Origin: a virus
Lineage: Duplodnaviria > Caudoviricetes
Reading direction: 5' to 3' (one strand)
IMG/VR virus record: IMGVR_UViG_3300046786_000269
Span: 1 to 35,631 of that record
DNA: 35,631 nt
Shown one piece after another: positions 364-33,110 of this stretch. The translations under genes and the position numbers were made by a program. Each line of letters begins with the position of its first letter. Within the stretch, counting starts at the first letter, position 1. The notes beneath the pieces are model-generated. The model was not told the DNA's origin. It did not search any database and worked only from the letters and a program-made list of their open reading frames with translations.

Positions 364-597
364 ATGACAATATATACGCCGGACACTTGGGCCGAAGAGG
401 AAGCGAGGATATGTTACCCTGTTGGGTGGCGACACTGGGAAACAGAGGATTGGTATGAAGCTCGGAAGTCGAAAGACATCGAATATTATAGCACAAAGGT
501 ATTTGCAAAAGAGCCCGATGCCGCTGAATTGATAGCTAAATTTAAGGCGGCATGGGAGGAAGCGCATATAGAGTTGCAATGGTCAGAAGATTATTAG
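364..597 (+). CDS. Hypothetical early protein (77 aa, Trp/Glu-rich)
   Basis: ORF preceded by strong RBS tcaactaagaggatgacaacATG. Confidence 0.8.
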   Translation: MTIYTPDTWAEEEARICYPVGWRHWETEDWYEARKSKDIEYYSTKVFAKEPDAAELIAKFKAAWEEAHIELQWSEDY

Positions 598-606
598 GGT
601 GACAAC

Positions 607-729
607 ATGAATCACAAAAGATTTAGACAACAAAACACGGTCTCTGGGACGTTTATGGGTGACTTTTCAATAGCTTGCATCATAGGTCTGCTATGGTACG
701 GCATCTTGACGGTGTTTTTTACATTCTAG
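607..729 (+). CDS. Small membrane protein (40 aa, MNHKRFRQQNTVSGTFMGDFSIACIIGLLWYGILTVFFTF); not in ORF track
   Basis: RBS agggtgacaacATG; C-terminal hydrophobic helix; the variant copy at 35583 differs by 4 synonymous and 1 non-synonymous change, supporting coding. Confidence 0.8.
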   Translation: MNHKRFRQQNTVSGTFMGDFSIACIIGLLWYGILTVFFTF

Positions 730-732
730 CTA

Positions 733-760
733 TTGCGATGAACCTTATTCATGCTAGCAT
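733..760 (+). promoter_or_regulatory. Putative sigma70-type promoter with inverted repeat in spacer
   Basis: TTGCGA(733-738)-16 bp-TAGCAT(755-760) preceded by TGc; atgaa-cctta-ttcat inverted repeat. Confidence 0.5.
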
Positions 761-795
761 ACATCATACAGGTAGTAATTAACTAAGGGGACAAT

Positions 796-1068
796 ATGTA
801 TAAATCAATAAAAACGAAAGCGGAGTTAAAACGCCTAGCGGTGGGCACTCGCCTCATCATGACTAATAACATGGTAGGTCGATTCGATGTTCCTTCACGC
901 ACCATCAAGCAAATACGCTCTAATGACATCATCATGAGCTTAGAAGACGGGCGTGAGAGCTATTCGCAACTAAACGACGTGAGGCTTGAGCCGACCGAAG
1001 AAGGGTTTAAGTTAATCGACCGTGAGACGGGCGTATTGTGCGTAGAATATAAAGTTTTAGCCAACTAA
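796..1068 (+). CDS. Hypothetical early protein (90 aa)
   Basis: RBS aactaaggggacaatATG; fits gene packing. Confidence 0.8.
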   Translation: MYKSIKTKAELKRLAVGTRLIMTNNMVGRFDVPSRTIKQIRSNDIIMSLEDGRESYSQLNDVRLEPTEEGFKLIDRETGVLCVEYKVLAN

Positions 1069-2651: not shown

Positions 2652-2819
2652 ATGATCGAGAACATTAAACAACTACTATTTACGCCTACGGGCATTATCG
2701 TTTCGTTGCTTCACGTTGCTTTTTTCGTGGGGTGCGTGACGTGCTGGATCGGTATTCAAACACAGGTATTTGGTAACGATCCAGTAGAACAAGTACAGGC
2801 ATTAGGACGGCGCAAATGA
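2652..2819 (+). CDS. Small membrane protein (55 aa, MIENIKQLLFTPTGIIVSLLHVAFFVGCVTCWIG...); not in ORF track
   Basis: RBS aggtga; TM helix; ATGA overlap with next gene at 2816-2819. Confidence 0.75.
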   Translation: MIENIKQLLFTPTGIIVSLLHVAFFVGCVTCWIGIQTQVFGNDPVEQVQALGRRK

Positions 2820-3307
2820 GCCAGGGTCAAAAGCAGGGCGGCGGCGGTTTAGTCGCCTTGCTACTGGCGGCGGCGTTGTTTGTCCCACCAGCTAATAATC
2901 TGCGGTTCCATGTGCATCGCTTTTTCGGGCTCTACGTCGCACCTACACGAACGATAATCGAGAGTGAGGTTGATAGGGCGGCTGATGCCTGGGGCGTGTC
3001 TCGTAGCGTCCTACGGGCTTTGGTGCAGGTCGAGAGTAGTTACCGACCTGACGCACTATCTCCCGTAGGCGCTCGGGGTGTGGCTCAGATTATGCCGTTT
3101 AATGCAAAGCGGTGCGGGCTCGGTGACGACAGAAAGCTATGGGATGCGGTTCATAACGTGCGGTGCGGCGCTCGTATACTTGCAGAGGAATTAGACCAAC
3201 ACGGCGACTTAAAGAAGGCGCTTACGGTCTACAACTGCGGAAGGGTCAAATGTAAGGAGGGCGAAAGATATGCAAGCAAGGTAATTGCGCTTTCTCGTGT
3301 GATGTAA
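2816..3307 (+). CDS. Membrane-anchored lytic transglycosylase (SLT domain)
   Basis: ALVQVESS catalytic Glu motif, SPVGARGVAQIMP, ALTVYN; N-terminal hydrophobic anchor. Confidence 0.9.
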   Translation: MSQGQKQGGGGLVALLLAAALFVPPANNLRFHVHRFFGLYVAPTRTIIESEVDRAADAWGVSRSVLRALVQVESSYRPDALSPVGARGVAQIMPFNAKRCGLGDDRKLWDAVHNVRCGARILAEELDQHGDLKKALTVYNCGRVKCKEGERYASKVIALSRVM

Positions 3308-10507: not shown

Positions 10508-13456
10508 CTATACTAATTTCAAAACTTTATCGACGTATTCTCTAGTCTCTTTTGGAACCTTAACAAACTGCTTAATGTTGTCCCAACTTGGCGTTTTACC
10601 TTCTGCTTTTACTTTGGCTATTGCGCTTTTTATATTAGCTGGCCCCCAGTTGTAAGCTGCCAATGCAAGACGCTCATCGCCGAAAGTATCAAGCTGCTTG
10701 CGAAGATAGCGGCTACCTCCCTCTACGTTTTGTTCTGGGTCTGTAGCATCCACCCCGAGGTCTTTAGCCGTGCCAGCCATAAGTTGCATAAGGCCACGAG
10801 CGCCTTTGTTGCTGATGGCATCCTTGTTGCCAGCAGACTCAACCTGTATCACCGCCTTAACTAAGCTGGTTGGGGCATACTGATCGCCCTGCGGAAGGCT
10901 TACGTTTTGTTTGCCAACCTTAACCTGGCTTGCGGGATTGAGCGTTTTCTCAAGCTCTAAAATGCGTTGCTCAAGAAGCATGTTCTCTGCTTCAATGTCA
11001 TCCTGCGGCGCACTAGGTGTAGTTGTTGTTTCCATGTCTGGAGTATCAACAACATTTTCTGTTTGGCTTTTACCGCCAAAGTATCCAAGCTGTACGCCAA
11101 ACTTCATTAGTGCATCTATGTTTGATTTTGTCGGCGGCGCTGATGCCAGCTTAATCAGCTTTGGATTTGCCAATAGCTCTGCTTCAAAAGCATTCATAGC
11201 AGAATTGCGAGCTTCGCCAATTTGCTTGACCCAGTTACCAACGCTGTAACCAACCAAGGCTCCTGTCATGGTGCCAGAACCAGCAAGTGTTCCAGCCAAC
11301 GCTCCTTTACGCATGGCATTGATTACGCCACGAGCCCCAGTGACAGCGCCTAGTGCTGTCTGTCTTATGCTAGTAAGGGAGTTGCCTGATGCGGCTTGCT
11401 TCTCTAGCGCCGCTGGACTCTTAGAAATCTCAAGGTCTTTAAGCACCTTCTCAAGTTCTGGCAGGTCATCCTGAAATAACTTCTTAGCAATCGCTTTGTT
11501 GTTTGTAAGATTCTCAAGCGGAGTGCCTCTCTTCATCAGCTTTTCACTAATGAACTTAGCTCGTCCCATCTGCAAGACTGGCGAATCAGCAAACTGCCGT
11601 GCAAACTTCTCTGCGCTGCGCTCGTTGGCAAATATCTTGTTTGGAATGGCAGAGTCACCAATGCGAAGGTATTCTTCCATTGGCGACTTTTGACCGGCCT
11701 TCTGTGCAAAGGCTTCAATATCTTTGTACTTGTCTTTAAACGCTGCTTGGAATGTGGCCTTCTCTTTACCAATAAACTCAGTAGGATTAGAAGCCTTAGT
11801 CAATCGTGCTAATAGTTCAGTACGAAGCTCGGTCATCTCGTTAGAGTCAAAGCCAAACTTGTCAGCTATTTCAGTGACGTTCTCAGGCTTTTCAAGAGCC
11901 TTATTCATTACACGGCTGGTTTGTACCTTTGGCTTAAACTGCCGTATAGCTGTCAGATCGCCAACCACGCCTTGAGAAAAGGTCTGCTTTGCTTCACGAG
12001 TCTTTTCAATGGCAGTACTGAGTTTTGTTAATGATTCTAGGTCTGGCTTAGTTGAAGCAGTACCAGGAAGTCCTCCAAGGGCACCGGCCTCTGGATCATA
12101 GAAATACTTGAGTCCAGCTTGGTCGATGCTCTCTCGCAGTTGCCGCATCAGGCTCGCTTCTGCGTTGTTTACGCCACTAGCATCAGCCATAGCACGACCG
12201 GCGGCGGCACGAATATCTTGCAGTTCTCCTACAGTTACGACTCCTGCCTTTCGTTGTGCAATGTCGTATACTTCGTTCATTACTCGTTGAGCTTTTGAAC
12301 TTGTCTCTGCCTTTGTTAGTTTGCCAAACGATTCAAACGTATCGATGGCCTCAGCAAATGGAACCGAAGCGTCAATCTTTGTTTTCTTTGGTACTTGCTG
12401 CCAAACCTTATCGACTGCATCTTCAACCACATCTTTACGTCCCATCAGGGATTCTTGAAGTGATTGCCCACGGTCCATTGTGGTTTGCGCTCTAGCATCT
12501 TCGCCAAAGCCAAGAGCGTTAAGAATAGAAGATTGCTGCGCTTCCTTCTGTGCGGCTGCTACCTGTGCTGCATCTTGCAACATCAGCGACATTTCACCTT
12601 GCTGTGGAGTAATGCCAAAACGCTCTAGTGCTGCTGTAAGCTCTGATTTACGAGCGTCTAATGCTGGCTGTAAGATGTTGCCGCCTTCTGGCGTATTAAG
12701 GAAACTCTGTTGATACTTAGCTGCACTAGGTGTCTGAGCTATTTCTGCTGCTGTAAGCGGCACACCACCAGCACCAACTCCAAGCTCTGGTATTTGCTGC
12801 GCTACTGCCAGCCGCTGTGCGCCCTCTTCGCCAAGTGCTGCAACTACGTTAGTATTTGCTGCGGCTCGTAACGCATCTTCATTGCCTAGTACAATCTTGG
12901 CAGTCGGAGCTAAAGCTGATGCCAATTTTCTAGTACCACTAATAGTACCTTGTACTGCTGTTGGAGCGAGTAAAGCACCAGCCAATCCGCTATATGGTGA
13001 TTCAGGCGCTATTGTTTCTCCAGCTCTAGCTCCAAGGTAGCTGGCTAATCCAAGACCAGCTTCGTTAAGCAATTTACCTTTACCGCCAGGGCCAGGAGTC
13101 ATAAATTCAACTGCTCGTTGAACTTCGGTCTGAGGTCTTACGCCAAGTATTTCTGCGGCTCCAGGCCCTTCCAACGCAGGAGAACCAGCAATCAAAGCAT
13201 CAAGAGCTTTTGTCGCTCCGAAGGTTTCTACTGGAGCGCCAGCATATTCTAAGCCTTTTACGAATGGATACGAGAGAACGTCAGCTAGTCCAGCAACTCC
13301 ACGGGTAATGCCAACTGGCACGTCAAATGCTAATTGCTTTAAACCATATCCACTCGGCTGTGCTGGCTCTGATTGTGGCTGTGCAGAACCAAGAGACGCT
13401 TCAAGTTGCGCTATGCGTTGTTCCAGTAGTGCGTTCTCTTGGTCGAGTGGGTCCAT
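10508..13456 (-). CDS. Large DNA-ejection/internal virion protein with C-terminal SLT domain
   Basis: AVIQVESAG, SNKGARGLMQLM, ALAAYNWG; position between nozzle and tail fibre. Confidence 0.85.
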   Translation of the reverse strand: MDPLDQENALLEQRIAQLEASLGSAQPQSEPAQPSGYGLKQLAFDVPVGITRGVAGLADVLSYPFVKGLEYAGAPVETFGATKALDALIAGSPALEGPGAAEILGVRPQTEVQRAVEFMTPGPGGKGKLLNEAGLGLASYLGARAGETIAPESPYSGLAGALLAPTAVQGTISGTRKLASALAPTAKIVLGNEDALRAAANTNVVAALGEEGAQRLAVAQQIPELGVGAGGVPLTAAEIAQTPSAAKYQQSFLNTPEGGNILQPALDARKSELTAALERFGITPQQGEMSLMLQDAAQVAAAQKEAQQSSILNALGFGEDARAQTTMDRGQSLQESLMGRKDVVEDAVDKVWQQVPKKTKIDASVPFAEAIDTFESFGKLTKAETSSKAQRVMNEVYDIAQRKAGVVTVGELQDIRAAAGRAMADASGVNNAEASLMRQLRESIDQAGLKYFYDPEAGALGGLPGTASTKPDLESLTKLSTAIEKTREAKQTFSQGVVGDLTAIRQFKPKVQTSRVMNKALEKPENVTEIADKFGFDSNEMTELRTELLARLTKASNPTEFIGKEKATFQAAFKDKYKDIEAFAQKAGQKSPMEEYLRIGDSAIPNKIFANERSAEKFARQFADSPVLQMGRAKFISEKLMKRGTPLENLTNNKAIAKKLFQDDLPELEKVLKDLEISKSPAALEKQAASGNSLTSIRQTALGAVTGARGVINAMRKGALAGTLAGSGTMTGALVGYSVGNWVKQIGEARNSAMNAFEAELLANPKLIKLASAPPTKSNIDALMKFGVQLGYFGGKSQTENVVDTPDMETTTTPSAPQDDIEAENMLLEQRILELEKTLNPASQVKVGKQNVSLPQGDQYAPTSLVKAVIQVESAGNKDAISNKGARGLMQLMAGTAKDLGVDATDPEQNVEGGSRYLRKQLDTFGDERLALAAYNWGPANIKSAIAKVKAEGKTPSWDNIKQFVKVPKETREYVDKVLKLV

Positions 13457-22396: not shown

Positions 22397-23437
22397 CTAT
22401 TCACCGCCAAGTCGCCGCCGCAGGTTATCCCGAATATCTTTCGTTTGTACCCTGGGGGTTCCACTTCCTGCGGAGCCAGATATTGACTTGGCAGCTTGCT
22501 TCGCCTTTTGGACGACTTGCTTCTGCTGCTGTATTACCGGCGCTGTATTTAGCTTTTGTACTAAGCCAGAAAACACCGGATTACCGTTGACCACATAATT
22601 ATAAGCCGTCTCTAGGACTTCCTCTGCGGAGCTATAACGACCCGTCTGTGTCAAAGCCTGTACCACGGGGGCCATCTCAGCTTCCAACTGCGAAGCTGTT
22701 TCAGGGTCACGGAACAAAGGCTTACGGTTCATGAATGATTCTACGACCATTTGGTTCATGTACTCAACTGCCTTTTTTTCCTGCTCGTGCTGCAAGGCCG
22801 TCCAGCGTTCCGTAGCAAGCTTTTCAGCTTCCTCCCTTGTCATGTACTGGGAGTAGTCCGGCTGGTCGTTGCCGGTCATTTGCTGCCGTTCAATAAGCTC
22901 CTGCGGTGATATCCCGTATGCCTCAAGCCATTCAAGTGCAGTCTCGTATGGAGCCTGTTTCATTGCCCGGTCCCAAGCGATTGAGCGACGAGCCACATCG
23001 GTAATAGCTATGCCTTCCTTGGCGTATTCCTGCTCGTAGTCTTTTATGGTGTTATAGACCGACGAATTACGCTCAATAAGCTGGTTTAGCTCCTGAGCTT
23101 TACGGTCGTATTGGTTACGAGTCTCGTAAGCTCGACGATTTAGATAGGATTGCAGAATATGAGCATTTTCAGCCGTGGGGTTCAGGAACGCTTCCTTCTC
23201 AGCCTTGTTCATGTCAGCCGGAGGTGCGAAGACCATCCGCTCTTGATTGCCGACTTCGTTGCTAACAACCTGAGAATCTTCCTCTTTTTGTTCAGTTTTG
23301 TAAGCAGTTTCTTGGCTACGATCCTCGTCTACATCACCCTTAAACTGTTTACTTAGGGTTTCACGAATCGACAACTCAGCCGGTTCACGTTCTGCAACAA
23401 CTTCGGTAGATTCTACCTCTTGGACATTATCTTCCAT
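22397..23437 (-). CDS. Scaffolding protein
   Basis: Acidic N-terminus, helical body, AKQAAKSISGS C-terminus; directly upstream of MCP. Confidence 0.8.
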   Translation of the reverse strand: MEDNVQEVESTEVVAEREPAELSIRETLSKQFKGDVDEDRSQETAYKTEQKEEDSQVVSNEVGNQERMVFAPPADMNKAEKEAFLNPTAENAHILQSYLNRRAYETRNQYDRKAQELNQLIERNSSVYNTIKDYEQEYAKEGIAITDVARRSIAWDRAMKQAPYETALEWLEAYGISPQELIERQQMTGNDQPDYSQYMTREEAEKLATERWTALQHEQEKKAVEYMNQMVVESFMNRKPLFRDPETASQLEAEMAPVVQALTQTGRYSSAEEVLETAYNYVVNGNPVFSGLVQKLNTAPVIQQQKQVVQKAKQAAKSISGSAGSGTPRVQTKDIRDNLRRRLGGE

Positions 23438-23750
23438 GTCTATACCTTTCTATTATTCTAGCCGTTAGGTCTTTAGCCAGCTTGCGTTCCGATGCCCCAG
23501 ACTCACTATCGGTCTGATAGCCACGGTCATACGCATCCCCTACTTCTATTGCCCCCGCCGCTCGATAAGCGGCCCGTAACTTACTTTTACTTGTATAAAT
23601 CTCTTTAGGATTAAGCGGGTTTCGAGTCGGCTCCATCTCATCCTGAATAAATAGGTCACGAGCATTAGTCTGCGCTCGTCGCTCTACCTGTTCTATAGGA
23701 ACAACCTTCTTTTTAACCGGACACCATTGGAATAGTTTGTATTTGCTCAT
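23427..23750 (-). CDS. Conserved hypothetical phage protein
   Basis: IQDEMEP, YTSKSKLR, IEVG motifs; tight packing. Confidence 0.8.
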   Translation of the reverse strand: MSKYKLFQWCPVKKKVVPIEQVERRAQTNARDLFIQDEMEPTRNPLNPKEIYTSKSKLRAAYRAAGAIEVGDAYDRGYQTDSESGASERKLAKDLTARIIERYRHGR

Positions 23751-24136
23751 TAGTCCTCCATTGTAGCCAGAAGAAACAGCACTTTTAACCGTCTGGCTTT
23801 CTTCTTTCGCTTTTCAGCTTCAATAGCTAGTCTTTGTTCTTCTATGATACGAGCCTGATATTCTGCGATAATGGCAGAAACCTCAGCTCGTAAAGCCTCT
23901 ACGTCGATTGGTTCAATAAGCTCTTGTTCAGGTATCCCTGCCTCAAGTTGCTTTTCAACCAACAGCTTAAATTCAACCGACGGCTTTTTCTTTTTCTTCT
24001 TAGTCTTACGCTGTCGCTCTTTAAGGATTTGAGCGGCATAGGCTTCCTCAAAAGCATTATACCGCTTCTTAAACCCATCAGGGTCGAGCAGTTGTACCTG
24101 CAAGTAGCTCTGAGGTGGTTTAAAGAAGAGAAACAT
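23750..24136 (-). CDS. Hypothetical protein (128 aa)
   Basis: Tight packing; Lys-rich helical. Confidence 0.7.
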   Translation of the reverse strand: MFLFFKPPQSYLQVQLLDPDGFKKRYNAFEEAYAAQILKERQRKTKKKKKKPSVEFKLLVEKQLEAGIPEQELIEPIDVEALRAEVSAIIAEYQARIIEEQRLAIEAEKRKKKARRLKVLFLLATMED

Positions 24137-24141
24137 TTAGG

Positions 24142-24417
24142 TTAAGCTATTTTAGCCTCAACTGTGTGAAGTGTGTGGTACGCCCCCAATATCTCCTTTA
24201 CTTGCTCTGAACCTGATACCCCAAGATATCCTGAAATAGCATTAGCAATGATGGCGCTGAAAAGTGACGATACCTGTGGCTTGCACACGTTTTCGCATAC
24301 AAACTCTATTGCAGTTTGTTCGCTGCTTTCAGACCAGCCATGAGTCTTGGCGATAATATCAAGGTATGGCTCAAACCCTTCTGGCATTGGCATTTCAAAC
24401 GTGACCGTGAGTTTCAT
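24142..24417 (-). CDS. Hypothetical protein (91 aa)
   Basis: ATGA overlap with the thioredoxin gene. Confidence 0.7.
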   Translation of the reverse strand: MKLTVTFEMPMPEGFEPYLDIIAKTHGWSESSEQTAIEFVCENVCKPQVSSLFSAIIANAISGYLGVSGSEQVKEILGAYHTLHTVEAKIA

Positions 24418-24917
24418 TTGGTTAGTTCTCCAATCTGCTTGTTAATTTCACCTAGCTTTGCGCCAATGATTTCCATGTTATAAGTTAATTCGCCACGTTG
24501 TGCGAAAAGCTCGTACAACTTCTTTTGACACTCTTGGGCAACTTTTTCTTCCTGCTGTATTTTGCTTGGAACTACTTCACCTGTCGCAAGCCAATGAGCA
24601 AGCGAATCCGAGTAAAGCATGCCAAAATGACGATATTTCAGTTCGCCACGCTCAAACACAAACAAAGCTGGCACAGAGTCTTTAACGACATCCGACTTAT
24701 CCATCTTCATCCAAGTGCGTTTAAACTCGGACGGCTTAGGAGTCTTGTCCATCGGGTGCGATACTTCTAACGCTCCACAATCAAAAGCGGATAAGTCTAC
24801 TTTTGCCAAATGGTCGTTCAATCTGTCGCAATATGGACAATTCTTTGCCCATACTTTGACCAGAACAAGTTCATTTTTAATAAACTCCTTGGCTGTTTCT
24901 TCAGTTAATTGCAACAT
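24414..24917 (-). CDS. Thioredoxin-fold protein (CPYC) with C-terminal coiled coil
   Basis: LVLVKVWAKNCPYC, SVPALFVFERGE cis-Pro loop; RBS aggaga. Confidence 0.85.
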   Translation of the reverse strand: MLQLTEETAKEFIKNELVLVKVWAKNCPYCDRLNDHLAKVDLSAFDCGALEVSHPMDKTPKPSEFKRTWMKMDKSDVVKDSVPALFVFERGELKYRHFGMLYSDSLAHWLATGEVVPSKIQQEEKVAQECQKKLYELFAQRGELTYNMEIIGAKLGEINKQIGELTK

Positions 24918-24929
24918 TTTATCTCCTAC

Positions 24930-26912
24930 TTATTTACCAAACACATACCAGTTTTGACTTGCAACGTAGCTGCCTGTGCATCCTGCATAATACGTTGCTG
25001 CTTCGCAGCTTGATTGGTCCCCATAACCAGAGCAAGACGGACTTCCTTGGCAAATGTTATCAAAACTATTCCAGGTACAATTGGAATACGTTGTCGAACA
25101 TCCGGACGTAGAGCCGCACGTTCCTTCGCTCAAACCGCTGCATGATACAGTTCTTGTCAAAGGACTGATATGAACCCAATCCTTAAAATTGCTGAGAGTG
25201 TAACTGCTCGTATGGTCAATTTGCTGACCGCTGTATGGAACAATTACAACATCATAGTTGGACGAACTTCCATTGTAGATCCAATAGTCACGATCTGGAC
25301 AAGTCATCATGTCTGGCAGAGTTAATGTAAGTGCTGATTGCCAAGTACATCCAGGCTCTGCGTTGCAATTTGTAGAGTCGTCAATGCCACCACAGGTTGC
25401 TGAACCGCTACACATCGCACCATACGTTCCAGTACAGTTACCTGTCGCATAGGTTCCAGTACACGAATACGAATCATATGTACCTGAGCAGCTAACGTAC
25501 CAAGAGCCACCGGTGCAAGCGCCGGTACCACTATCGTAAGTACAATAGCTGCCGCCATTGGCATTATTACAAGCAGTTCCATCGCCGCCGCCATCGCTAT
25601 AGTTTGCACAGTCATCGTAGTTCTGTGTACATCCAGAGGTGCTACCACAAGCTGTTTCACCTAGCGTAGAGCAGTCTTGTGGATTATTTGACCATGAACA
25701 ACCAGAGTAGCTTTCACATGTCGATTGGTCGCCAAATGATGAGCATGATGCTTGCTCCCAAGTACAGCCAGATGCTCCCGTACAACTGCTTTCATCGCCG
25801 TTATAAACGCTGCATGGATTTCCTGCATACCAAGTACAACCACCGTGTGCGTCACGATTTAAGCAATCGCTTTCGTTAGTATACGAGCTACAGGCATTGC
25901 TTGGCGTTCCGGTACATGTAGCCGTAGAAGGATCAGCAATCCATTCCGTTGCTGTGTTGTCTAATGTTTGATTAGCAGTGACATATTTTACTTTGAGCGC
26001 AGTACCCCCACCGCTGACTAAAGTGCTAGATGGAGTGCCAGTGTTACCTGCATTGACGCCTTGCTGAAAACCCCCATAGCCGTAGTGACCAAATGTACCG
26101 GCGACATTGTAGCTAATTAGCGTACCAGTTAATTGATTGTAAACTGCTTGGCCGTTGCCACCGCTGACCCAGGTACTGACTTCGCCGCTTGCACTAGCGC
26201 CAATGTGTCCTTTATTTACGCCGGTAAACTTAAAATCAATCCAAGTATACGAGCCTGTATTGTCGAGCGACATGTGCTGTGTCGTGCCAGGTGTGACGTT
26301 GGACTTTTGAATTGCAGAGATGGTTAGTTTGCCGTCGTCGTTAGCACCTTGAAGGTATGCAGAACCACCTTGATAGCGGCCACCCGAAAGAGCTTTTACG
26401 CTCACGCTGTCGATAGTAAATCGAGCCGCAACAATACTTGGCGCAAAGGTCAACCCTGCGCTCGCATTAAGGCAGAGGACTCGTGTCGTATATGTTCCAG
26501 CTATGCCATACGAGCCAATAGTATTACCTGCGAAGTTTACAACAACGGTGCCCGATGTGACGTTAGAAAGAGTAAAAGAAACGTCATACCGTTCACCAAG
26601 CTGCATTGTCGGGGTTTGAGATAGTGCTCCTGCGCCATTTGTGTCGTGTGAAACGGAGTTATTAGAATATGACCACCCTGTCGGCAATGTCCATCCAGTA
26701 GCAGAGCCAGTAAAGTTACCATTTGTGATGCGCTCTTGAGTAGACGAAGAGAGCGCAAGAATTTTGCCACCGTTACTCCAGTTAAAGTTCTGGGTATCTT
26801 GAGCAATTTGTCCGGTGCTACCACCAAACGTCACGCCACCAGTAACAAGAGTTGGCACTCCTGCTGCCGTCCAATCGAATGTTCCAGTAAATGGATTAAA
26901 AACGTAAGGCAT
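24930..26912 (-). CDS. Cys-rich fibre-like putative virion protein (660 aa)
   Basis: PYVFNPFTGTFD N-terminus, ITNGNF carbohydrate-binding-like domain, 33 Cys in the C-terminal half. Confidence 0.8.
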   Translation of the reverse strand: MPYVFNPFTGTFDWTAAGVPTLVTGGVTFGGSTGQIAQDTQNFNWSNGGKILALSSSTQERITNGNFTGSATGWTLPTGWSYSNNSVSHDTNGAGALSQTPTMQLGERYDVSFTLSNVTSGTVVVNFAGNTIGSYGIAGTYTTRVLCLNASAGLTFAPSIVAARFTIDSVSVKALSGGRYQGGSAYLQGANDDGKLTISAIQKSNVTPGTTQHMSLDNTGSYTWIDFKFTGVNKGHIGASASGEVSTWVSGGNGQAVYNQLTGTLISYNVAGTFGHYGYGGFQQGVNAGNTGTPSSTLVSGGGTALKVKYVTANQTLDNTATEWIADPSTATCTGTPSNACSSYTNESDCLNRDAHGGCTWYAGNPCSVYNGDESSCTGASGCTWEQASCSSFGDQSTCESYSGCSWSNNPQDCSTLGETACGSTSGCTQNYDDCANYSDGGGDGTACNNANGGSYCTYDSGTGACTGGSWYVSCSGTYDSYSCTGTYATGNCTGTYGAMCSGSATCGGIDDSTNCNAEPGCTWQSALTLTLPDMMTCPDRDYWIYNGSSSNYDVVIVPYSGQQIDHTSSYTLSNFKDWVHISPLTRTVSCSGLSEGTCGSTSGCSTTYSNCTWNSFDNICQGSPSCSGYGDQSSCEAATYYAGCTGSYVASQNWYVFGK

Positions 26913-27160
26913 TAGCTTCTCACGACGCTTGTAAGATTATCGCCTGTATAACCAAGAGTGAGCGTTGCAACCGTTACACCACTAAGTTTGTATACTACGC
27001 CAGTTAAGTTAGTTCCGGTATATGAAAGTGCAATTTCATCATGGGGTTGATTGACTAGCCCTTGTACTACCTCCTGATACACGTTGCTGTTTCTAACAAC
27101 GGTAGCTACTGAGATGTCTGGGTTTACTGACGCTGCGGAGTTAGAAACGGTTGTAGCCAT
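26912..27160 (-). CDS. Small beta-rich structural protein
   Basis: Internal repeat LSYTGTNLTGV / LGYTGDNLTSV; tight packing. Confidence 0.75.
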   Translation of the reverse strand: MATTVSNSAASVNPDISVATVVRNSNVYQEVVQGLVNQPHDEIALSYTGTNLTGVVYKLSGVTVATLTLGYTGDNLTSVVRS

Positions 27161-29736
27161 TATTCTTCATCCTCCAACTCGATACCTATTGGGTTGCCTT
27201 CTGTGTCGCTAATGATTTTGCCTTTGCGCTTACGGCGTGGAGCCGGAGCAGCTTTTTCAATAATCATTGGCTTGTCTGTCTGTAATAGGATTGGCGCTTG
27301 CTGCGGAATCTTTTGAATTGCGTCCATGCTAAGCCTGATACGCTCAAGCTCGTTATCGGATGCCAAGCGTCTCTCTTCCATGAGCTTTTCAGTCTCAGAA
27401 ACTTTGATACGCATTTGCTCAAGCTCAAGCTTTTGAAGCTCAAGCATCTGTGCCATACGGTTTGTCTCTTGCGTAATGGCTTGCTTATTAGCGTCAGATT
27501 CCGACATAGCTTGTACTTTAAGCATATCAACTTGTACTGCTGACTGCTTAATCTGAAGCTCTTGTTGTGATAGCGCAAGCTCTTGCTGCTTAACGTATTC
27601 CTCGAATTGCTGCTTTTGCATGAGAAGCTGTGCTTCAAGCTGGTCACGCTGCATCTTGAGTTGCTGGTCTTGGTAGCTAAGTTGGTTCTTAGCGGCCTTG
27701 TCCTGCATCTCCATCTGCGTGACCTGAATCCGAGCTTGGGATTCCATTTGCGCTATTTGTAGCCGGCCCTGAACTTCTTGCATAACTGGGTCCGGCGGCG
27801 GCGGTTGCTTAGCTGCTTCCTCCTTCGCTTTAGCAATTTCACCAATTTGCATAAGGGCTGAAGTAAATAATCCATCGACTTCTTTGCCTCCCTTGTAACG
27901 CTTAATCATGTTCTGGAAGAGTGCGATTGAGAACTGCAACAAAGGTGGGTACTGGTCTACCAAGCCTCGCATCTGGTCAAAGAATTGACCAGCCGTTTGC
28001 ATCAGTGCGGTCGCTTCTTGCTGTTGCTGCGCTTGGTCGATTGCGACCATAGAATCCGAAGCAATCTGAATGCGGTAACTTCGTTTTTTGTCGTCCCGAA
28101 GAATTTGAATAATCTGCTGCTTAACCTTGTCGATTTCCGCAATAGGGTCATAAGGCGGTGCCATAGGTGCCGGTGGAGGTGGCGGTGCCATACCTGAACC
28201 ATCTTCTGGCAGCGGTTCTTGCATCGGCTCTGGCATTGGCGGTGGAGGCGGCAGCGTTGGTTCAATGAGAGAGTCGGCATCAGCCACCTCCATAATGGTC
28301 TGTTCGTCAAACTGTTCGCAGATAATTACTGCAAGATTGCTGATAGCGTCTGAGACAAACTTAGAGAACATGTTTTGTCGCACGATAAGACCAAGCGACG
28401 ACCATTGATTCTCTAGCCGATTAGCTGTGGCTGACTTGTATTGCTCGCTTGTACCACGAAGCAAATCAGACACTTTAAGCGTTTCGTAAAGTTGCTCCAA
28501 AGCTGTCTGCCGTGCGGTCTGAAGAATGTTAAGAGCATTGATATACGGCTCAATGTTCATCGCTTCGATACCAGCAGCAAGGCCACCACGCTGCTTGTAT
28601 GATGGCCAATTCGTAACCGGAATAAGCTTCAAGTCGCCAGACATGAGCATTTCGACTTGATTGCCCAAAGTAGCATCGTACAAGCTATTAGTACGAATAG
28701 CTTGAGTAACTGCGTGGATACGAGTTGTAAGACGCTCCACCTCAAGGATTTGGTCTTTAACGTGGCTGTAATCTGAGACTGGGATTACACTATCTGGGTC
28801 AACCGACTGACGAATGACAACACACGGGTAAAACTTCTCAAAATTAATAGGTGGTTCTGACTCTTCAATGATGGTCTTTTCGCCACCCTTTTGAATCCAG
28901 TAGACCTTGTTTGTAGCTTCGCACCAAATCTCGTAAATCTCTGCTTTGCCCTCAAACTTGTCATCTTTACGGGAGATGTCTTTTTTCATCACCTCTGGGA
29001 AACTATCGTAAGAAAGTGTTTTGGCTACGTCTTTGCCAAACATGTCTTCAGCTTGCGCTCGGTCCATAAACGCACGACGGCCCTGCCATTCTATCTCTTG
29101 CTCGTTTCGAGCATCGGAGCAGAAGTAGTCGTTATACTGCACTACCTCAAGAATCGCCTTCTCAGACACCTTCTTTTCGACTTCAGCTTTGCCGATAAGA
29201 ATACCGCCCTCGGCTTCTGTAAGTTCTGATTCATCGCCGTCAAATGGTTGACCTTTGCCGTCAATAAGCTGACCAGACGGATCACGGATAACGGCAAATT
29301 CCTCTGTAACCTTTTCAAACTTAGGTACATACCGAGCCCAAAGAACCGCTTGGCCAACAGCAAGGAACTGCAATGCGCTCTGGTAGCCTACCTTGTCGAA
29401 GTCAAAGTGGCAGTCCATAGCGTACTGGGTGTTTCGTTCGATGACGACCGACCCAAGCTCATACGGCATACTGCCTGAATGCTTACGAAGGTTTACTTCC
29501 GCTTTTGGCGTGGAAGAATAGTAAGCAGGAAGAAGAGTATTGATACAATACCACCAAACATTAAGTCGTCTTTCTGCATCGTTAAGAATCCCCACCTGTT
29601 TTTGAGCGTTGTACACTCTGATGGATTCTTCAGCGGCCTCTATAAACTTTTTGCGGCGCTCCTCAGCCTGTGTGAGTTGAGACTTCCACCAACGGGGGGA
29701 ATACTTTTCAACGAGAGGTTTAGGCTGCAATTTCAT
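27160..29736 (-). CDS. Portal protein (long C-terminal coiled-coil barrel)
   Basis: 858 aa following TerL; SDLLRG.S....SATA motif; Q-rich coiled coil. Confidence 0.85.
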   Translation of the reverse strand: MKLQPKPLVEKYSPRWWKSQLTQAEERRKKFIEAAEESIRVYNAQKQVGILNDAERRLNVWWYCINTLLPAYYSSTPKAEVNLRKHSGSMPYELGSVVIERNTQYAMDCHFDFDKVGYQSALQFLAVGQAVLWARYVPKFEKVTEEFAVIRDPSGQLIDGKGQPFDGDESELTEAEGGILIGKAEVEKKVSEKAILEVVQYNDYFCSDARNEQEIEWQGRRAFMDRAQAEDMFGKDVAKTLSYDSFPEVMKKDISRKDDKFEGKAEIYEIWCEATNKVYWIQKGGEKTIIEESEPPINFEKFYPCVVIRQSVDPDSVIPVSDYSHVKDQILEVERLTTRIHAVTQAIRTNSLYDATLGNQVEMLMSGDLKLIPVTNWPSYKQRGGLAAGIEAMNIEPYINALNILQTARQTALEQLYETLKVSDLLRGTSEQYKSATANRLENQWSSLGLIVRQNMFSKFVSDAISNLAVIICEQFDEQTIMEVADADSLIEPTLPPPPPMPEPMQEPLPEDGSGMAPPPPPAPMAPPYDPIAEIDKVKQQIIQILRDDKKRSYRIQIASDSMVAIDQAQQQQEATALMQTAGQFFDQMRGLVDQYPPLLQFSIALFQNMIKRYKGGKEVDGLFTSALMQIGEIAKAKEEAAKQPPPPDPVMQEVQGRLQIAQMESQARIQVTQMEMQDKAAKNQLSYQDQQLKMQRDQLEAQLLMQKQQFEEYVKQQELALSQQELQIKQSAVQVDMLKVQAMSESDANKQAITQETNRMAQMLELQKLELEQMRIKVSETEKLMEERRLASDNELERIRLSMDAIQKIPQQAPILLQTDKPMIIEKAAPAPRRKRKGKIISDTEGNPIGIELEDEE

Positions 29737-32088: not shown

Positions 32089-32284
32089 TACCAACCTTCC
32101 GCAGCTCTGCCTTGAGCATTGCAATCTCTTCTTCTAGACTCGTGACTTCTAAGTCTCTTGATTGGTAGCCAGCTATATATGCCTTCTTTGCAGCAAAGTA
32201 TTCGCCATCATTCATAGCTAATAAACTAACGCATAGTATTGCTTGTCGTTCAATGCGATCCGCCAACTCTTCAGGTGTTTTCAT
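32081..32284 (-). CDS. Hypothetical protein (MKTPEELA; start reassigned to 32284)
   Basis: ATGA overlap; shared N-terminal module. Confidence 0.75.
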   Translation of the reverse strand: MKTPEELADRIERQAILCVSLLAMNDGEYFAAKKAYIAGYQSRDLEVTSLEEEIAMLKAELRKVGND

Positions 32285-32832
32285 TCCGCACTCCACACAT
32301 CCGTTTGCCGTCGTAATCCGCTAGGAAACTCCAGCTTGTTGTCCGTAAAACTCCGCTCTCTAAACACTACATGGTTGGTTGGCTGGATGGCTAACATGCC
32401 CAAATTTAGCTTAATAAAGCAAAACTCCTTGGCTTGCTCAGGGTATGCGGAAAACCCATCACCAACCGGAGCAGCCGTGAATAAGTAAGTTCCCTCGTAC
32501 GACTCATCCTTGCACTTAACCTTGCAATCCAAGCCAGCAAGGTACTTGTATTCCAATGTCGTAAACCGCTCGCCGTAACAGTCCCACGTTTGAGCCTGAT
32601 CCGCCCACCAAGGCACTGTGCGATGTGGATAAAAAGCTATCGCATGAGCCGGAACATTGCGGTAAATCGCACCCGACTCCAACATCACCGTACAACCCCA
32701 CGTTCTGCCTGGATATGAGACCAAACCAAACCACACACACGGTAGAAACCCTTGAGCTACGGTATGCGTGTAGGTGCTATCGACATAGCAGTAAATATGC
32801 CGTGGCAGTTCTCCAACCAAAGTGTACGTCAT
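32281..32832 (-). CDS. Conserved hypothetical phage protein (start reassigned to 32832)
   Basis: LESGAIYRNVP, WDC, YLFT, QPTN motifs; ATGA overlap. Confidence 0.8.
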   Translation of the reverse strand: MTYTLVGELPRHIYCYVDSTYTHTVAQGFLPCVWFGLVSYPGRTWGCTVMLESGAIYRNVPAHAIAFYPHRTVPWWADQAQTWDCYGERFTTLEYKYLAGLDCKVKCKDESYEGTYLFTAAPVGDGFSAYPEQAKEFCFIKLNLGMLAIQPTNHVVFRERSFTDNKLEFPSGLRRQTDVWSAE

Positions 32833-33110
32833 TTGCACTCCCATGACTTAACGGCAAACATGGAATACCGCTTGTGATCAGCACAGCTAAGCGTGTTGCT
32901 GCGGTTCCACCACATACACGACTTATCCTCTACTTTAGAGCCATCAGACAACTCAATAACGCATTCAGTTCGTGATCGCTCTGCCAGCTTTACAACGCCA
33001 TACATTGCAAAAATGACAGCAACTACGGCTAAAATGACGGCTGTAACCAAATCATGCTTGTTGATTTCAACCACATATCGGTGATAAGGATCGCCATTCA
33101 ATCTGGCCAT
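32829..33110 (-). CDS. Single-TM protein with Cys-containing C-domain
   Basis: LVTAVILAVVAVIFAMYGVV TM; 4 Cys. Confidence 0.7.
   Translation of the reverse strand: MARLNGDPYHRYVVEINKHDLVTAVILAVVAVIFAMYGVVKLAERSRTECVIELSDGSKVEDKSCMWWNRSNTLSCADHKRYSMFAVKSWECK

Follow-up and report, generated by a model that had tools for sequence, protein, structure and literature searches.

The window analysed here, the whole 35,631-nucleotide stretch of the IMG/VR virus record IMGVR_UViG_3300046786_000269 (Duplodnaviria; Caudoviricetes), encodes a cysteine (Cys)-rich predicted virion fibre, whose gene is directly followed by that of a thioredoxin-fold protein (Trx). These two genes are coupled, conserved, linked to each other in both directions and transferred jointly. 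Judging from the sequence patterns, the Trx is probably a dedicated thiol-disulfide folding catalyst for the disulfide-rich fibre. A Trx dedicated to the Cys-rich protein had been proposed in an earlier, sequence-only reading of the window. This proposal is supported by the two-way co-occurrence, the joint transfer between phage backbones and the matching signal peptides, and the part of it that was argued from active-site motifs did not hold. The fibre–Trx pair is a genuine phage module that occurs widely and has apparently not been described before, and it can be regarded as a variant of virus-encoded disulfide folding. No prior description of the module was found in the literature searched; annotation tables of metagenomic phage studies may list the genes.

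The two genes are the following (aa, amino acids):
24930..26912, minus strand: 660-aa predicted virion fibre or spike with 34 Cys and no hydrophobic N-terminus
24414..24917, minus strand: 167-aa thioredoxin-fold protein (Pfam Thioredoxin E 7e-4; AF2; Foldseek), no signal peptide

Co-Occurrence and Joint Transfer of the Two Genes

The linkage was assessed in 79 loci carrying the C-terminal module of the fibre (50 viral loci, 28 metagenome loci and L098). Ten of them were dropped because of a cut 3′ end, too little downstream DNA or a broken frame, and the remaining 69 form 48 clusters at 90% identity. The Trx is located 2–796 nucleotides (nt) downstream of the module in 44 of these clusters, and in 29 of 32 when the clustering is done at 70%, against none of 69 portal-related loci. 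Such a co-occurrence check was suggested together with the sequence-only reading, and its result agrees with the proposal. The clusters that lack the Trx are L043, L087, L067, and L085, and all five contigs found later (L182, L198, L209, L218, and L238) carry it. The controls were taken from 75 portal-related loci, six of which were excluded for their 3′-cut portals; neither the module nor the Trx profile matched any of the 69, of which 33 span the whole portal-to-scaffold interval. Likewise, no Trx domain was found in 20 whole sister records devoid of the module, nine of them complete, where a single weak match (E 0.005) covers the helix only.

The opposite search, starting from the Trx, gave 11 loci: the Cys-rich gene lies directly upstream in nine, and the other two have no upstream DNA. 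A broader Trx pattern gave 19 loci and one new contig, L098, where a divergent Trx is located two genes downstream of a differently built 33-Cys fibre. This direction of the comparison rests on few distant loci, the broad Trx alignments being too diverged for locus scanning.

The nearest sister, L108, shares 92% of the portal, 94% of the scaffold and 96% of the major capsid protein (MCP) with the window and keeps the 82-aa gene that follows the portal. The same slot of L108 is filled by a 4-Cys fibre with no Trx, and this fibre shares only its first 19 residues with that of the window. An example of the reverse relation is L018, in which the module is 80% and the Trx 74% identical to those of the window, but the portal only 23% and the MCP 31%. 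The module and the Trx have thus moved jointly. The carriers, whose phage backbones are unrelated, include head-cassette and tail-region loci with a GC content of 36–66%. The frames of some of them (L019/L041, L042, L044, L054, L056, L065, and L209) are open only with TGA read as Gly (table 25), and therefore these carriers are likely phages of Gracilibacteria/Absconditabacteria.

At least three Trx lineages, as defined by the tree, occupy the same position next to the fibre gene. The distances between Trx proteins follow those between modules only slightly (rho 0.16, 12/2,000 permutations, n = 42) and not at all outside of the close clade, which indicates that Trx partners are swapped between lineages. 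Because of this swapping and of the variation in the CxxC motif, the activity seems to be selected rather than one fixed partner with a specific interface.

The Cysteine-Rich Module of the Predicted Fibre

The 660-aa protein has 33 of its 34 Cys within aa 333–645 and no hydrophobic start, as described in the sequence-only reading. Its parts are:
24933..26015, minus strand: mobile C-terminal module, aa 300–660, a beta-sandwich knob with two Cys-rich insertions (AF2, VIA)
25347..25916, minus strand: Cys-rich arm 1, aa 333–522, 24 Cys, helix-helix-strand repeats and a long return strand (AF2)
24978..25142, minus strand: Cys-rich arm 2, aa 591–645, 8 Cys (Cys positions and AF2 model)
26856..26912, minus strand: N-terminal 19-aa anchor-like motif, 14/19 identical to the Cys-poor fibre of L108
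26397..26744, minus strand: aa ~57–172, candidate CBM4/9-like domain (phrog_30593, E 5e-8), a lead only

Homologues of aa 300–660 form 289 clusters. The module is joined to very different N-termini, among them collagen-like parts and the shared anchor motif, in proteins of 486–1155 aa among 120 listed homologues. Within the window fibre, aa ~57–172 are possibly a carbohydrate-binding (CBM4/9-like) domain, with Atlas feature scores of 0.78–0.84 that stay below the naming bar. The AF2 model of the module (pLDDT 91.7, pTM 0.50, from a 97-row alignment) contains the beta-sandwich typical of phage fibre and spike knobs (TSP4-like, TNF-like). This knob is assembled from three stretches (aa ~305–335, ~522–590, and ~640–659), of which ~90 residues match phage knobs. 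In VIA it matches tailspike 24qj (Z 12.6, rmsd 1.6 Å, 88 residues aligned), CBA120 TSP4 (Z 11.0) and the Pa223 capsid spike knob (Z 9.8), and BFVD matches to tail-fibre proteins cover ~57 residues at an rmsd of ~1 Å. Foldseek with the module gave nothing in the PDB at E ≤ 0.001, and a PDB sequence search gave nothing relevant. The same beta-sandwich core (Z 9.8–12.6) is present in CBA120 TSP4 (residues ~76–177), the C-terminus of Solidus gp83 and the C-terminal knob of Pa223 gp52, but in the window module this core carries two large insertions, the Cys-rich arms. Pa223 gp52 is presented, in the part of the preprint used here, as a trimeric head spike with a TNF-fold knob (bioRxiv 2025.06.11.659172). 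From the knob fold and the gene position, we infer that the 660-aa protein is a virion fibre.

Whole-module fold searches, in which the arms were not folded alone, listed no structural match for the arms. A candidate likeness is that to the plexin-semaphorin-integrin (PSI) repeat; Pfam gave no match to this repeat, and it was not listed in the fold searches, which the knob dominated. For the 32 arm Cys, the alignment of 161 distinct modules has 5,152 cells, of which 85 are gaps and one of the other 5,067 is a substitution; these Cys are never replaced by His or Asp. They are spaced 6–13 residues apart within the arms, and CxxC is found in none of the 161 modules. The number of Cys per module is 32 in 88, 36 in 35 and 33 in 14, with other values in the rest; once the variable C538 (Cys in 49% of modules) is excluded, it is even in 136/161. 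The losses of Cys are block deletions, so the disulfide pairs are not resolvable from co-loss. The region is acidic and rich in S/G/T/Y/N/D, and module versions with signal peptides keep the same set of Cys. Such residues behave like those of disulfides, and the arms are likely disulfide-bonded repeats with about 16 bonds.

Alternatively, the repeats could be Cys4 metal (Zn) sites, with the Trx keeping the ligands reduced or aiding metal loading. The Cys counts of the modules change in steps of four (24, 28, 32, 36), which would suit such sites, and the second CxxC on the tail of some Trx proteins (12/44 clusters) and the DUF6171 Cys proteins could bind metal as well. The model is nevertheless quite improbable, given the lack of CxxC, the spacing of the arm Cys, their never being His or Asp and the retention of the same Cys set in the versions with signal peptides.

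A 421-aa fibre with 33 Cys (L098:4416-5681, plus strand) has the repeats, apparently without the split knob. Judging from this fibre, the Cys arm may be a mobile unit of its own.

Compartment of the Fibre and the Thioredoxin

A hydrophobic start is absent from the translations of both the window fibre and the window Trx, and the hydrophobicity rule was applied to their close homologues. The comparison of compartments covered 56 loci with complete 5′ ends, grouped in 41 clusters. The Trx is present and neither gene has a signal in 36 of them, whereas L067 has neither signal nor Trx. Three clusters (L043, L047, and L087) combine a signal-like fibre with the lack of the Trx, and one (L046, with CPHC) has signal-like starts on both genes. 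In the later-found L238 (CSWC), fibre and Trx likewise both begin with a signal-like segment, unlike the L238 homologue of the 91-aa gene that follows the window Trx. No mismatched pair of fibre and Trx compartments was seen in these loci. The fibre and the Trx thus appear to share a compartment. Most simply read, this pattern means that the Trx has to come into contact with the folding fibre and that host periplasmic enzymes can take its place. The Trx proteins of L046 and L238 are 26% identical and belong to different parts of the quick tree, and the signal/Trx pattern probably reflects about three events, not five.

Signal-bearing fibres occur further in 6/120 listed homologues, scattered in the tree; in one of them, P0106, the anchor motif sits right after the predicted cleavage site. 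Signal-like fibre genes in phage structural operons are located at L046:2985-7731, L238:3713-6566, L043:1734-3314, L047:4563-6065, and L087:2353-3948, and the next gene of L043 (124 aa, 6 Cys) has a signal-like start too. According to these fibres, some virion parts may pass through Sec. Such passage would be unusual for tailed phages.

The signal peptides on some fibres would also suit another explanation: the Trx belongs to nucleotide metabolism or replication and hitchhikes in its position, or the Cys-rich protein is not part of the virion but an accessory that is secreted or displayed on the host surface. In the sections of PMC3821669 drawn on here, the Trx genes of phages mostly go with replication or with ribonucleotide reductase (RNR), and RNR is present in 1/38 carriers. 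The window itself lacks it, as the sequence-only reading had remarked: neither RNR (class I/II or class III) nor a DNA polymerase of family A (PolA) was found in the complete record, where control searches were positive, and RNR was found in 0/18 near-complete carriers. Moreover, several Trx lineages have reached the same adjacent position, the knob fold and the varied N-termini (collagen-like, anchor motif) are typical of virion fibres, and P0106 keeps its anchor motif after the cleavage site. This explanation is the least probable of those considered, and a very unlikely one.

The Thioredoxin Family

The window Trx carries WAKNCPYC, SVP, an insertion and a coiled-coil tail, all of which had been recognized in the sequence-only reading. 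The CPYC occupies aa 27–30 and Pro83 the cis-Pro position, and the tail is modelled as a 48-residue helix (aa 119–166) with hydrophobic residues at 10/14 a/d positions of its heptads. The AF2 model (pLDDT 87) has the classical Trx fold, in which the N-terminal strand and helix are present and the CxxC lies at the start of helix 28–37. Foldseek gave 205 matches at E ≤ 0.001, with classical thioredoxins at the top (E 2e-6), and the family profile matches PDB thioredoxins at E ~1e-17. A search with this profile found 79 proteins, mostly family members of 140–200 aa. Among 51 aligned members only C27, C30, and P83, the conserved Pro at the cis-Pro position, are invariant; most have the helical C-terminal extension, which is divergent in sequence. 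A homodimer prediction for the Trx scored 0.29 against a mark of 0.42 and is used neither way. The only stand-alone relatives of the helix, two short matches (86–88% identity), are probably fragments.

The motifs are less constant than the fold. There are 18 CxxC variants in 44 clusters; CGYC, CPYC, CGHC, and CPHC all occur in the family, and CPYC, which the sequence-only reading had treated as a functional clue, is found in 12/44 only. The V-Pro of its DsbA-like loop occurs in 11/51 members, the residue before Pro being A/V/S/T/I/F, and the fold is that of a classical Trx with no DsbA or DsbG domains. CPYC, V-Pro and the CENVC of the 91-aa gene say nothing on the direction of the redox reaction.

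Several narrower classes were rejected. Canonical TrxA does not fit, with CPYC instead of WCGPC and a TIGR01068 score of 21 bits against a cut-off of 96.8. Glutaredoxin agrees in CPYC and V-Pro only, with no PF00462 match at E ≤ 0.01, 13.9 bits against 87 for TIGR02180, and a model that keeps the N-terminal strand and helix missing from the short glutaredoxin fold. DsbA was discarded since there is no signal-like start and the insertion holds one short helix (64–69), not the large helical domain of DsbA. Even the L046 Trx, with its signal-like start and CPHC, reaches 27 bits against the DsbA cut-off of 279, and the window Trx fails the DsbE cut-off too. The isomerases DsbC/DsbG/ScsC were rejected because the extension is C-terminal, where these enzymes have an N-terminal oligomerisation domain, and there is no GT-cisPro (following the criteria in the part of PMC6450060 consulted).

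A second, C-terminal CxxC is present in L036, L041, L042, L044, L045, L054, L056, L064, L068, L077, L080, and L081, at the end of a flexible tail and often as CxxCQ. This arrangement is reminiscent of the shuttle disulfides in RNR R1 and in Erv proteins.

The fold itself would permit the Trx to act as a reductase or holdase, protecting the 32 thiols from oxidation and aggregation as the particle is assembled, while the disulfides form spontaneously after lysis. This would account equally well for the co-occurrence and suits a classical Trx fold that is cytoplasmic in most loci, with no oxidant gene in 37/38 carriers. Spontaneous oxidation has been suggested for phage disulfides (in the part of PMC13576161 used here). 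The canonical CGPC, however, is found in 0/44 clusters and 1/51 family members, and the exported Trx proteins beside exported fibres (L046 CPHC, L238 CSWC) fit oxidation or isomerisation better. The host cytoplasm already has reductases, and a reductase-only Trx would duplicate these systems. The reductase or holdase role is accordingly an unlikely one, yet the strongest of the competing explanations.

Host Trx acts as a structural partner of T7 polymerase, and a similar redox-independent role, as a chaperone or structural partner acting mainly through the coiled coil, may be imagined for the phage Trx. The helical extension of most members and a weak tail-fibre-chaperone PHROG match (E 0.006, 1/51 members) point in this direction. 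It is the helix that diverges, whereas the two active-site Cys and the cis-Pro never vary, and the Trx accompanies Cys-rich fibres alone, being absent where the slot holds a Cys-poor fibre; such a role is correspondingly improbable, about as much as the metal sites. Between an oxidase, an isomerase and a holdase, the shuffling of mixed disulfides would be the most likely role.

Proposed Folding Mechanism

The favoured model, in which the Trx is a folding catalyst of the fibre, can be described in five steps. The genes are tightly spaced or overlapping and move together between backbones. The fibre would then trimerise via the knob and dock through its N-terminal motif, in the window probably by means of the 82-aa protein, as the fold and the position suggest. 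The CxxC of the Trx would attack the nascent Cys-rich arms, and the mixed disulfides formed would be shuffled to the native pairing; the C-terminal helix may oligomerise the Trx or target it to the fibre, as in isomerases of the ScsC/alpha-DsbA2 type. Net oxidation, the least secure step, would come from outside of the cassette, through host quinone/Dsb routes or oxygen at lysis, and one locus brings its own VKOR-like gene. Finally, some lineages apparently gained signal peptides on both genes, and where the fibre alone is exported it would depend on host Dsb enzymes.

A more far-reaching version of this model is tentative and has the odds somewhat against it. According to this version, a private Trx builds a 16-disulfide, eukaryote-like adhesin arm in the cytoplasm before lysis, in a widespread and horizontally exchanged system that would have switched compartments repeatedly. 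Some pairs would be exported by Sec, with the fibre folded in the periplasm and joined to the particles at lysis.

The source of oxidation was looked for among the phage genes. The VKOR-like gene, found in 1/38 carriers (L052:1604-1912, plus strand), stands directly after the Trx and encodes a hydrophobic protein of 103 aa with a Cys pair and CPWC (Pfam VKOR E 0.002 and 9e-6, below the cut-off). The search for Erv1/Alr gave 0/38 records, with no working positive control. Among 30 neighbour genes chosen for a Pfam scan, 29 of which came from a list of 139, no further redox family was detected. These searches thus gave no support for a complete pathway of the poxvirus type, with which the sequence-only reading had compared the locus.

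Several points weigh against the folding-catalyst model. The disulfides, the virion location and the Trx activity are all inferred, and the window genome encodes no phage oxidant that these searches found. Odd Cys counts, with C538 excluded, occur in 25/161 modules, and the steps of four would also be compatible with metal. In L067, a record that is 59% complete, the module occurs with neither a signal-like start nor a Trx, and L085 is a doubtful case, while the co-occurrence counts leave out ~60 distant Trx clusters that lack genomic context. Outside of the close clade, the co-phylogeny of Trx and module is absent (rho −0.02, n = 31), which argues against a specific co-evolved interface. The signal-peptide calls come from a hydrophobicity rule and visual judgement rather than from SignalP, and the six further signal-bearing fibres stand outside of the compartment counts, having no genomic context. 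L043, L047, and L087 form one clade (support 0.99), and two of these records are incomplete; the Fisher values (5e-5, 1e-3) overstate independence because these three Trx-less loci are one clade.

Gene Layout and Neighbouring Genes

The 35.6 kb record is 100% complete (CheckV) and podovirus-like. Its minus strand carries terminase, portal, major head, tail, SLT, and tail-fibre genes (Pfam, PHROG), and the genes in question lie on this strand between the portal and the presumed scaffold gene, where the sequence-only reading had placed them:
27160-29736, minus strand: portal (PHROG portal, E 2e-104)
26912..27160, minus strand: 82-aa protein without Cys (phrog_26903), whose gene opens the variable slot behind the portal
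24142..24417, minus strand: 91-aa protein, ATGA-coupled to the Trx, no family match
22397-23437, minus strand: presumed scaffold gene, no family match, assigned by its position upstream of the major head gene

The junctions from the portal to the 91-aa gene are TAATG, TAATG, a 12-nt gap with AGGAG, and ATGA, the last one being the overlap already noticed between the Trx and the 91-aa gene. Counts of promoters and terminators equal those of shuffled sequence. The portal-to-scaffold interval (window 23750-27160, compared with L108-L180) is hypervariable, with ~1.7–6.3 kb of fibre-like genes.

The 82-aa protein is 80–89% identical in carriers of the Cys module and in sisters with Cys-poor fibres, and is likely an adaptor for fibres starting with the FNPxTG motif. 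This anchor motif lies within the first 45 aa of 27/120 listed fibre homologues. The 82-aa gene type repeatedly precedes proteins starting with FNPxTG (window 26856-27160; L063, L064, L108, and L182), and the two are possibly an adaptor-anchor pair for swappable fibres.

The 91-aa gene, which the sequence-only reading had singled out for its CENVC, was rejected as a redox partner: its CxxxC is present in 11/18 covered homologues, window included, and unrelated genes of ~90–110 aa replace it elsewhere. It is likely a generic small accessory gene that follows the fibre. Another rejected partner is the 187-aa protein at window 32281-32844 (minus strand; PHROG 3704 ‘ferredoxin’, E 3e-21), which has no obvious CxxCxxC and also occurs in the Trx-less sisters L108 and L145.

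In one clade, a small Cys-rich DUF6171 protein stands right after the Trx (L059:6538-6786, L088:5841-6095; similar in L053, L096, and L218). A transporter-like gene of the Vut_1/QPTR family is located upstream of the fibre in L054 (3341-4000, plus strand, table 25). The gene of the terminase large subunit is split in L002 by a 182-aa open reading frame (462-1010, plus strand), possibly an intron/homing endonuclease or an intein, and the terminase frame is extended in L004/L013 as well. Two SLT lytic transglycosylase domains (Pfam) are encoded by the window, one in a small stand-alone gene of the early region (2816-3307, plus strand) and the other forming the end of a virion protein of 982 aa (10508-13456, minus strand).

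The best cultured matches of the window MCP are Myxococcus Mx9/Mx8 (33–34% identity), which are too distant to name the host. Neither the module nor the Trx has a match among 50,697 INPHARED records, and two degenerate-pattern scans of GTDB for cellular homologues gave 0. Freshwater metagenomes are the best holders among sequencing runs: two of them may be where the record comes from, three further runs from two studies hold 24–47% of the window words, and no RNA dataset is listed among the holders.

Comparison with Known Systems and Significance

Poxviruses and other nucleocytoplasmic large DNA viruses encode a cytoplasmic disulfide pathway for virion proteins (described in the part of PMC13576161 used here). 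Their likeness to the phage pair is a virus-encoded Trx-fold enzyme likely serving virion-protein disulfides in a reducing cytoplasm, and the linkage seen here is a genomic one, between a Trx-fold gene and that of its putative virion substrate. The poxvirus genes concerned are E10R/A2.5L/G4L. The closest phage-borne precedent is the SPbeta prophage, which carries BdbA/BdbB for sublancin, thiol-disulfide oxidoreductases co-encoded with their own disulfide-bonded substrate. According to the sections of PMC6391423 available, this substrate is a secreted bacteriocin with two disulfides, whereas the putative substrate of the phage Trx is a predicted virion fibre that likely has about 16, and most of the fibre–Trx pairs are cytoplasmic. 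DsbC/DsbG, ScsC and Wolbachia alpha-DsbA2 share a Trx domain with a ~50-residue helical extension and overlapping motifs, but the phage extension is C-terminal, and there is no DsbA-type helical insertion and no conserved GT-cisPro (from the same portion of PMC6450060). Milano, Qbeta, and siphovirus gp39 show that tailed phages can carry structural disulfides in their virions. These disulfides mainly crosslink subunits, and no phage enzyme has been described for them; the words ‘thioredoxin’, ‘oxidoreductase’, and ‘Dsb’ are absent from the two main texts on Milano (PMC10811340, PMC10491603).

A role of helper in disulfide folding is known from poxviruses and apparently not yet described for phage particles. 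The fibre–Trx pair is a precise candidate for it, with one small enzyme and one substrate that are co-expressible in laboratory E. coli, and a single-gene cytoplasmic foldase for 16-disulfide proteins could serve recombinant expression. The signal-peptide variants suggest that virion parts may be routed through Sec. If the model is true, it would add a new family of receptor-binding arms, rich in Cys and borne by a standard knob, and show how phages build disulfide-dense surface proteins in a reducing compartment.

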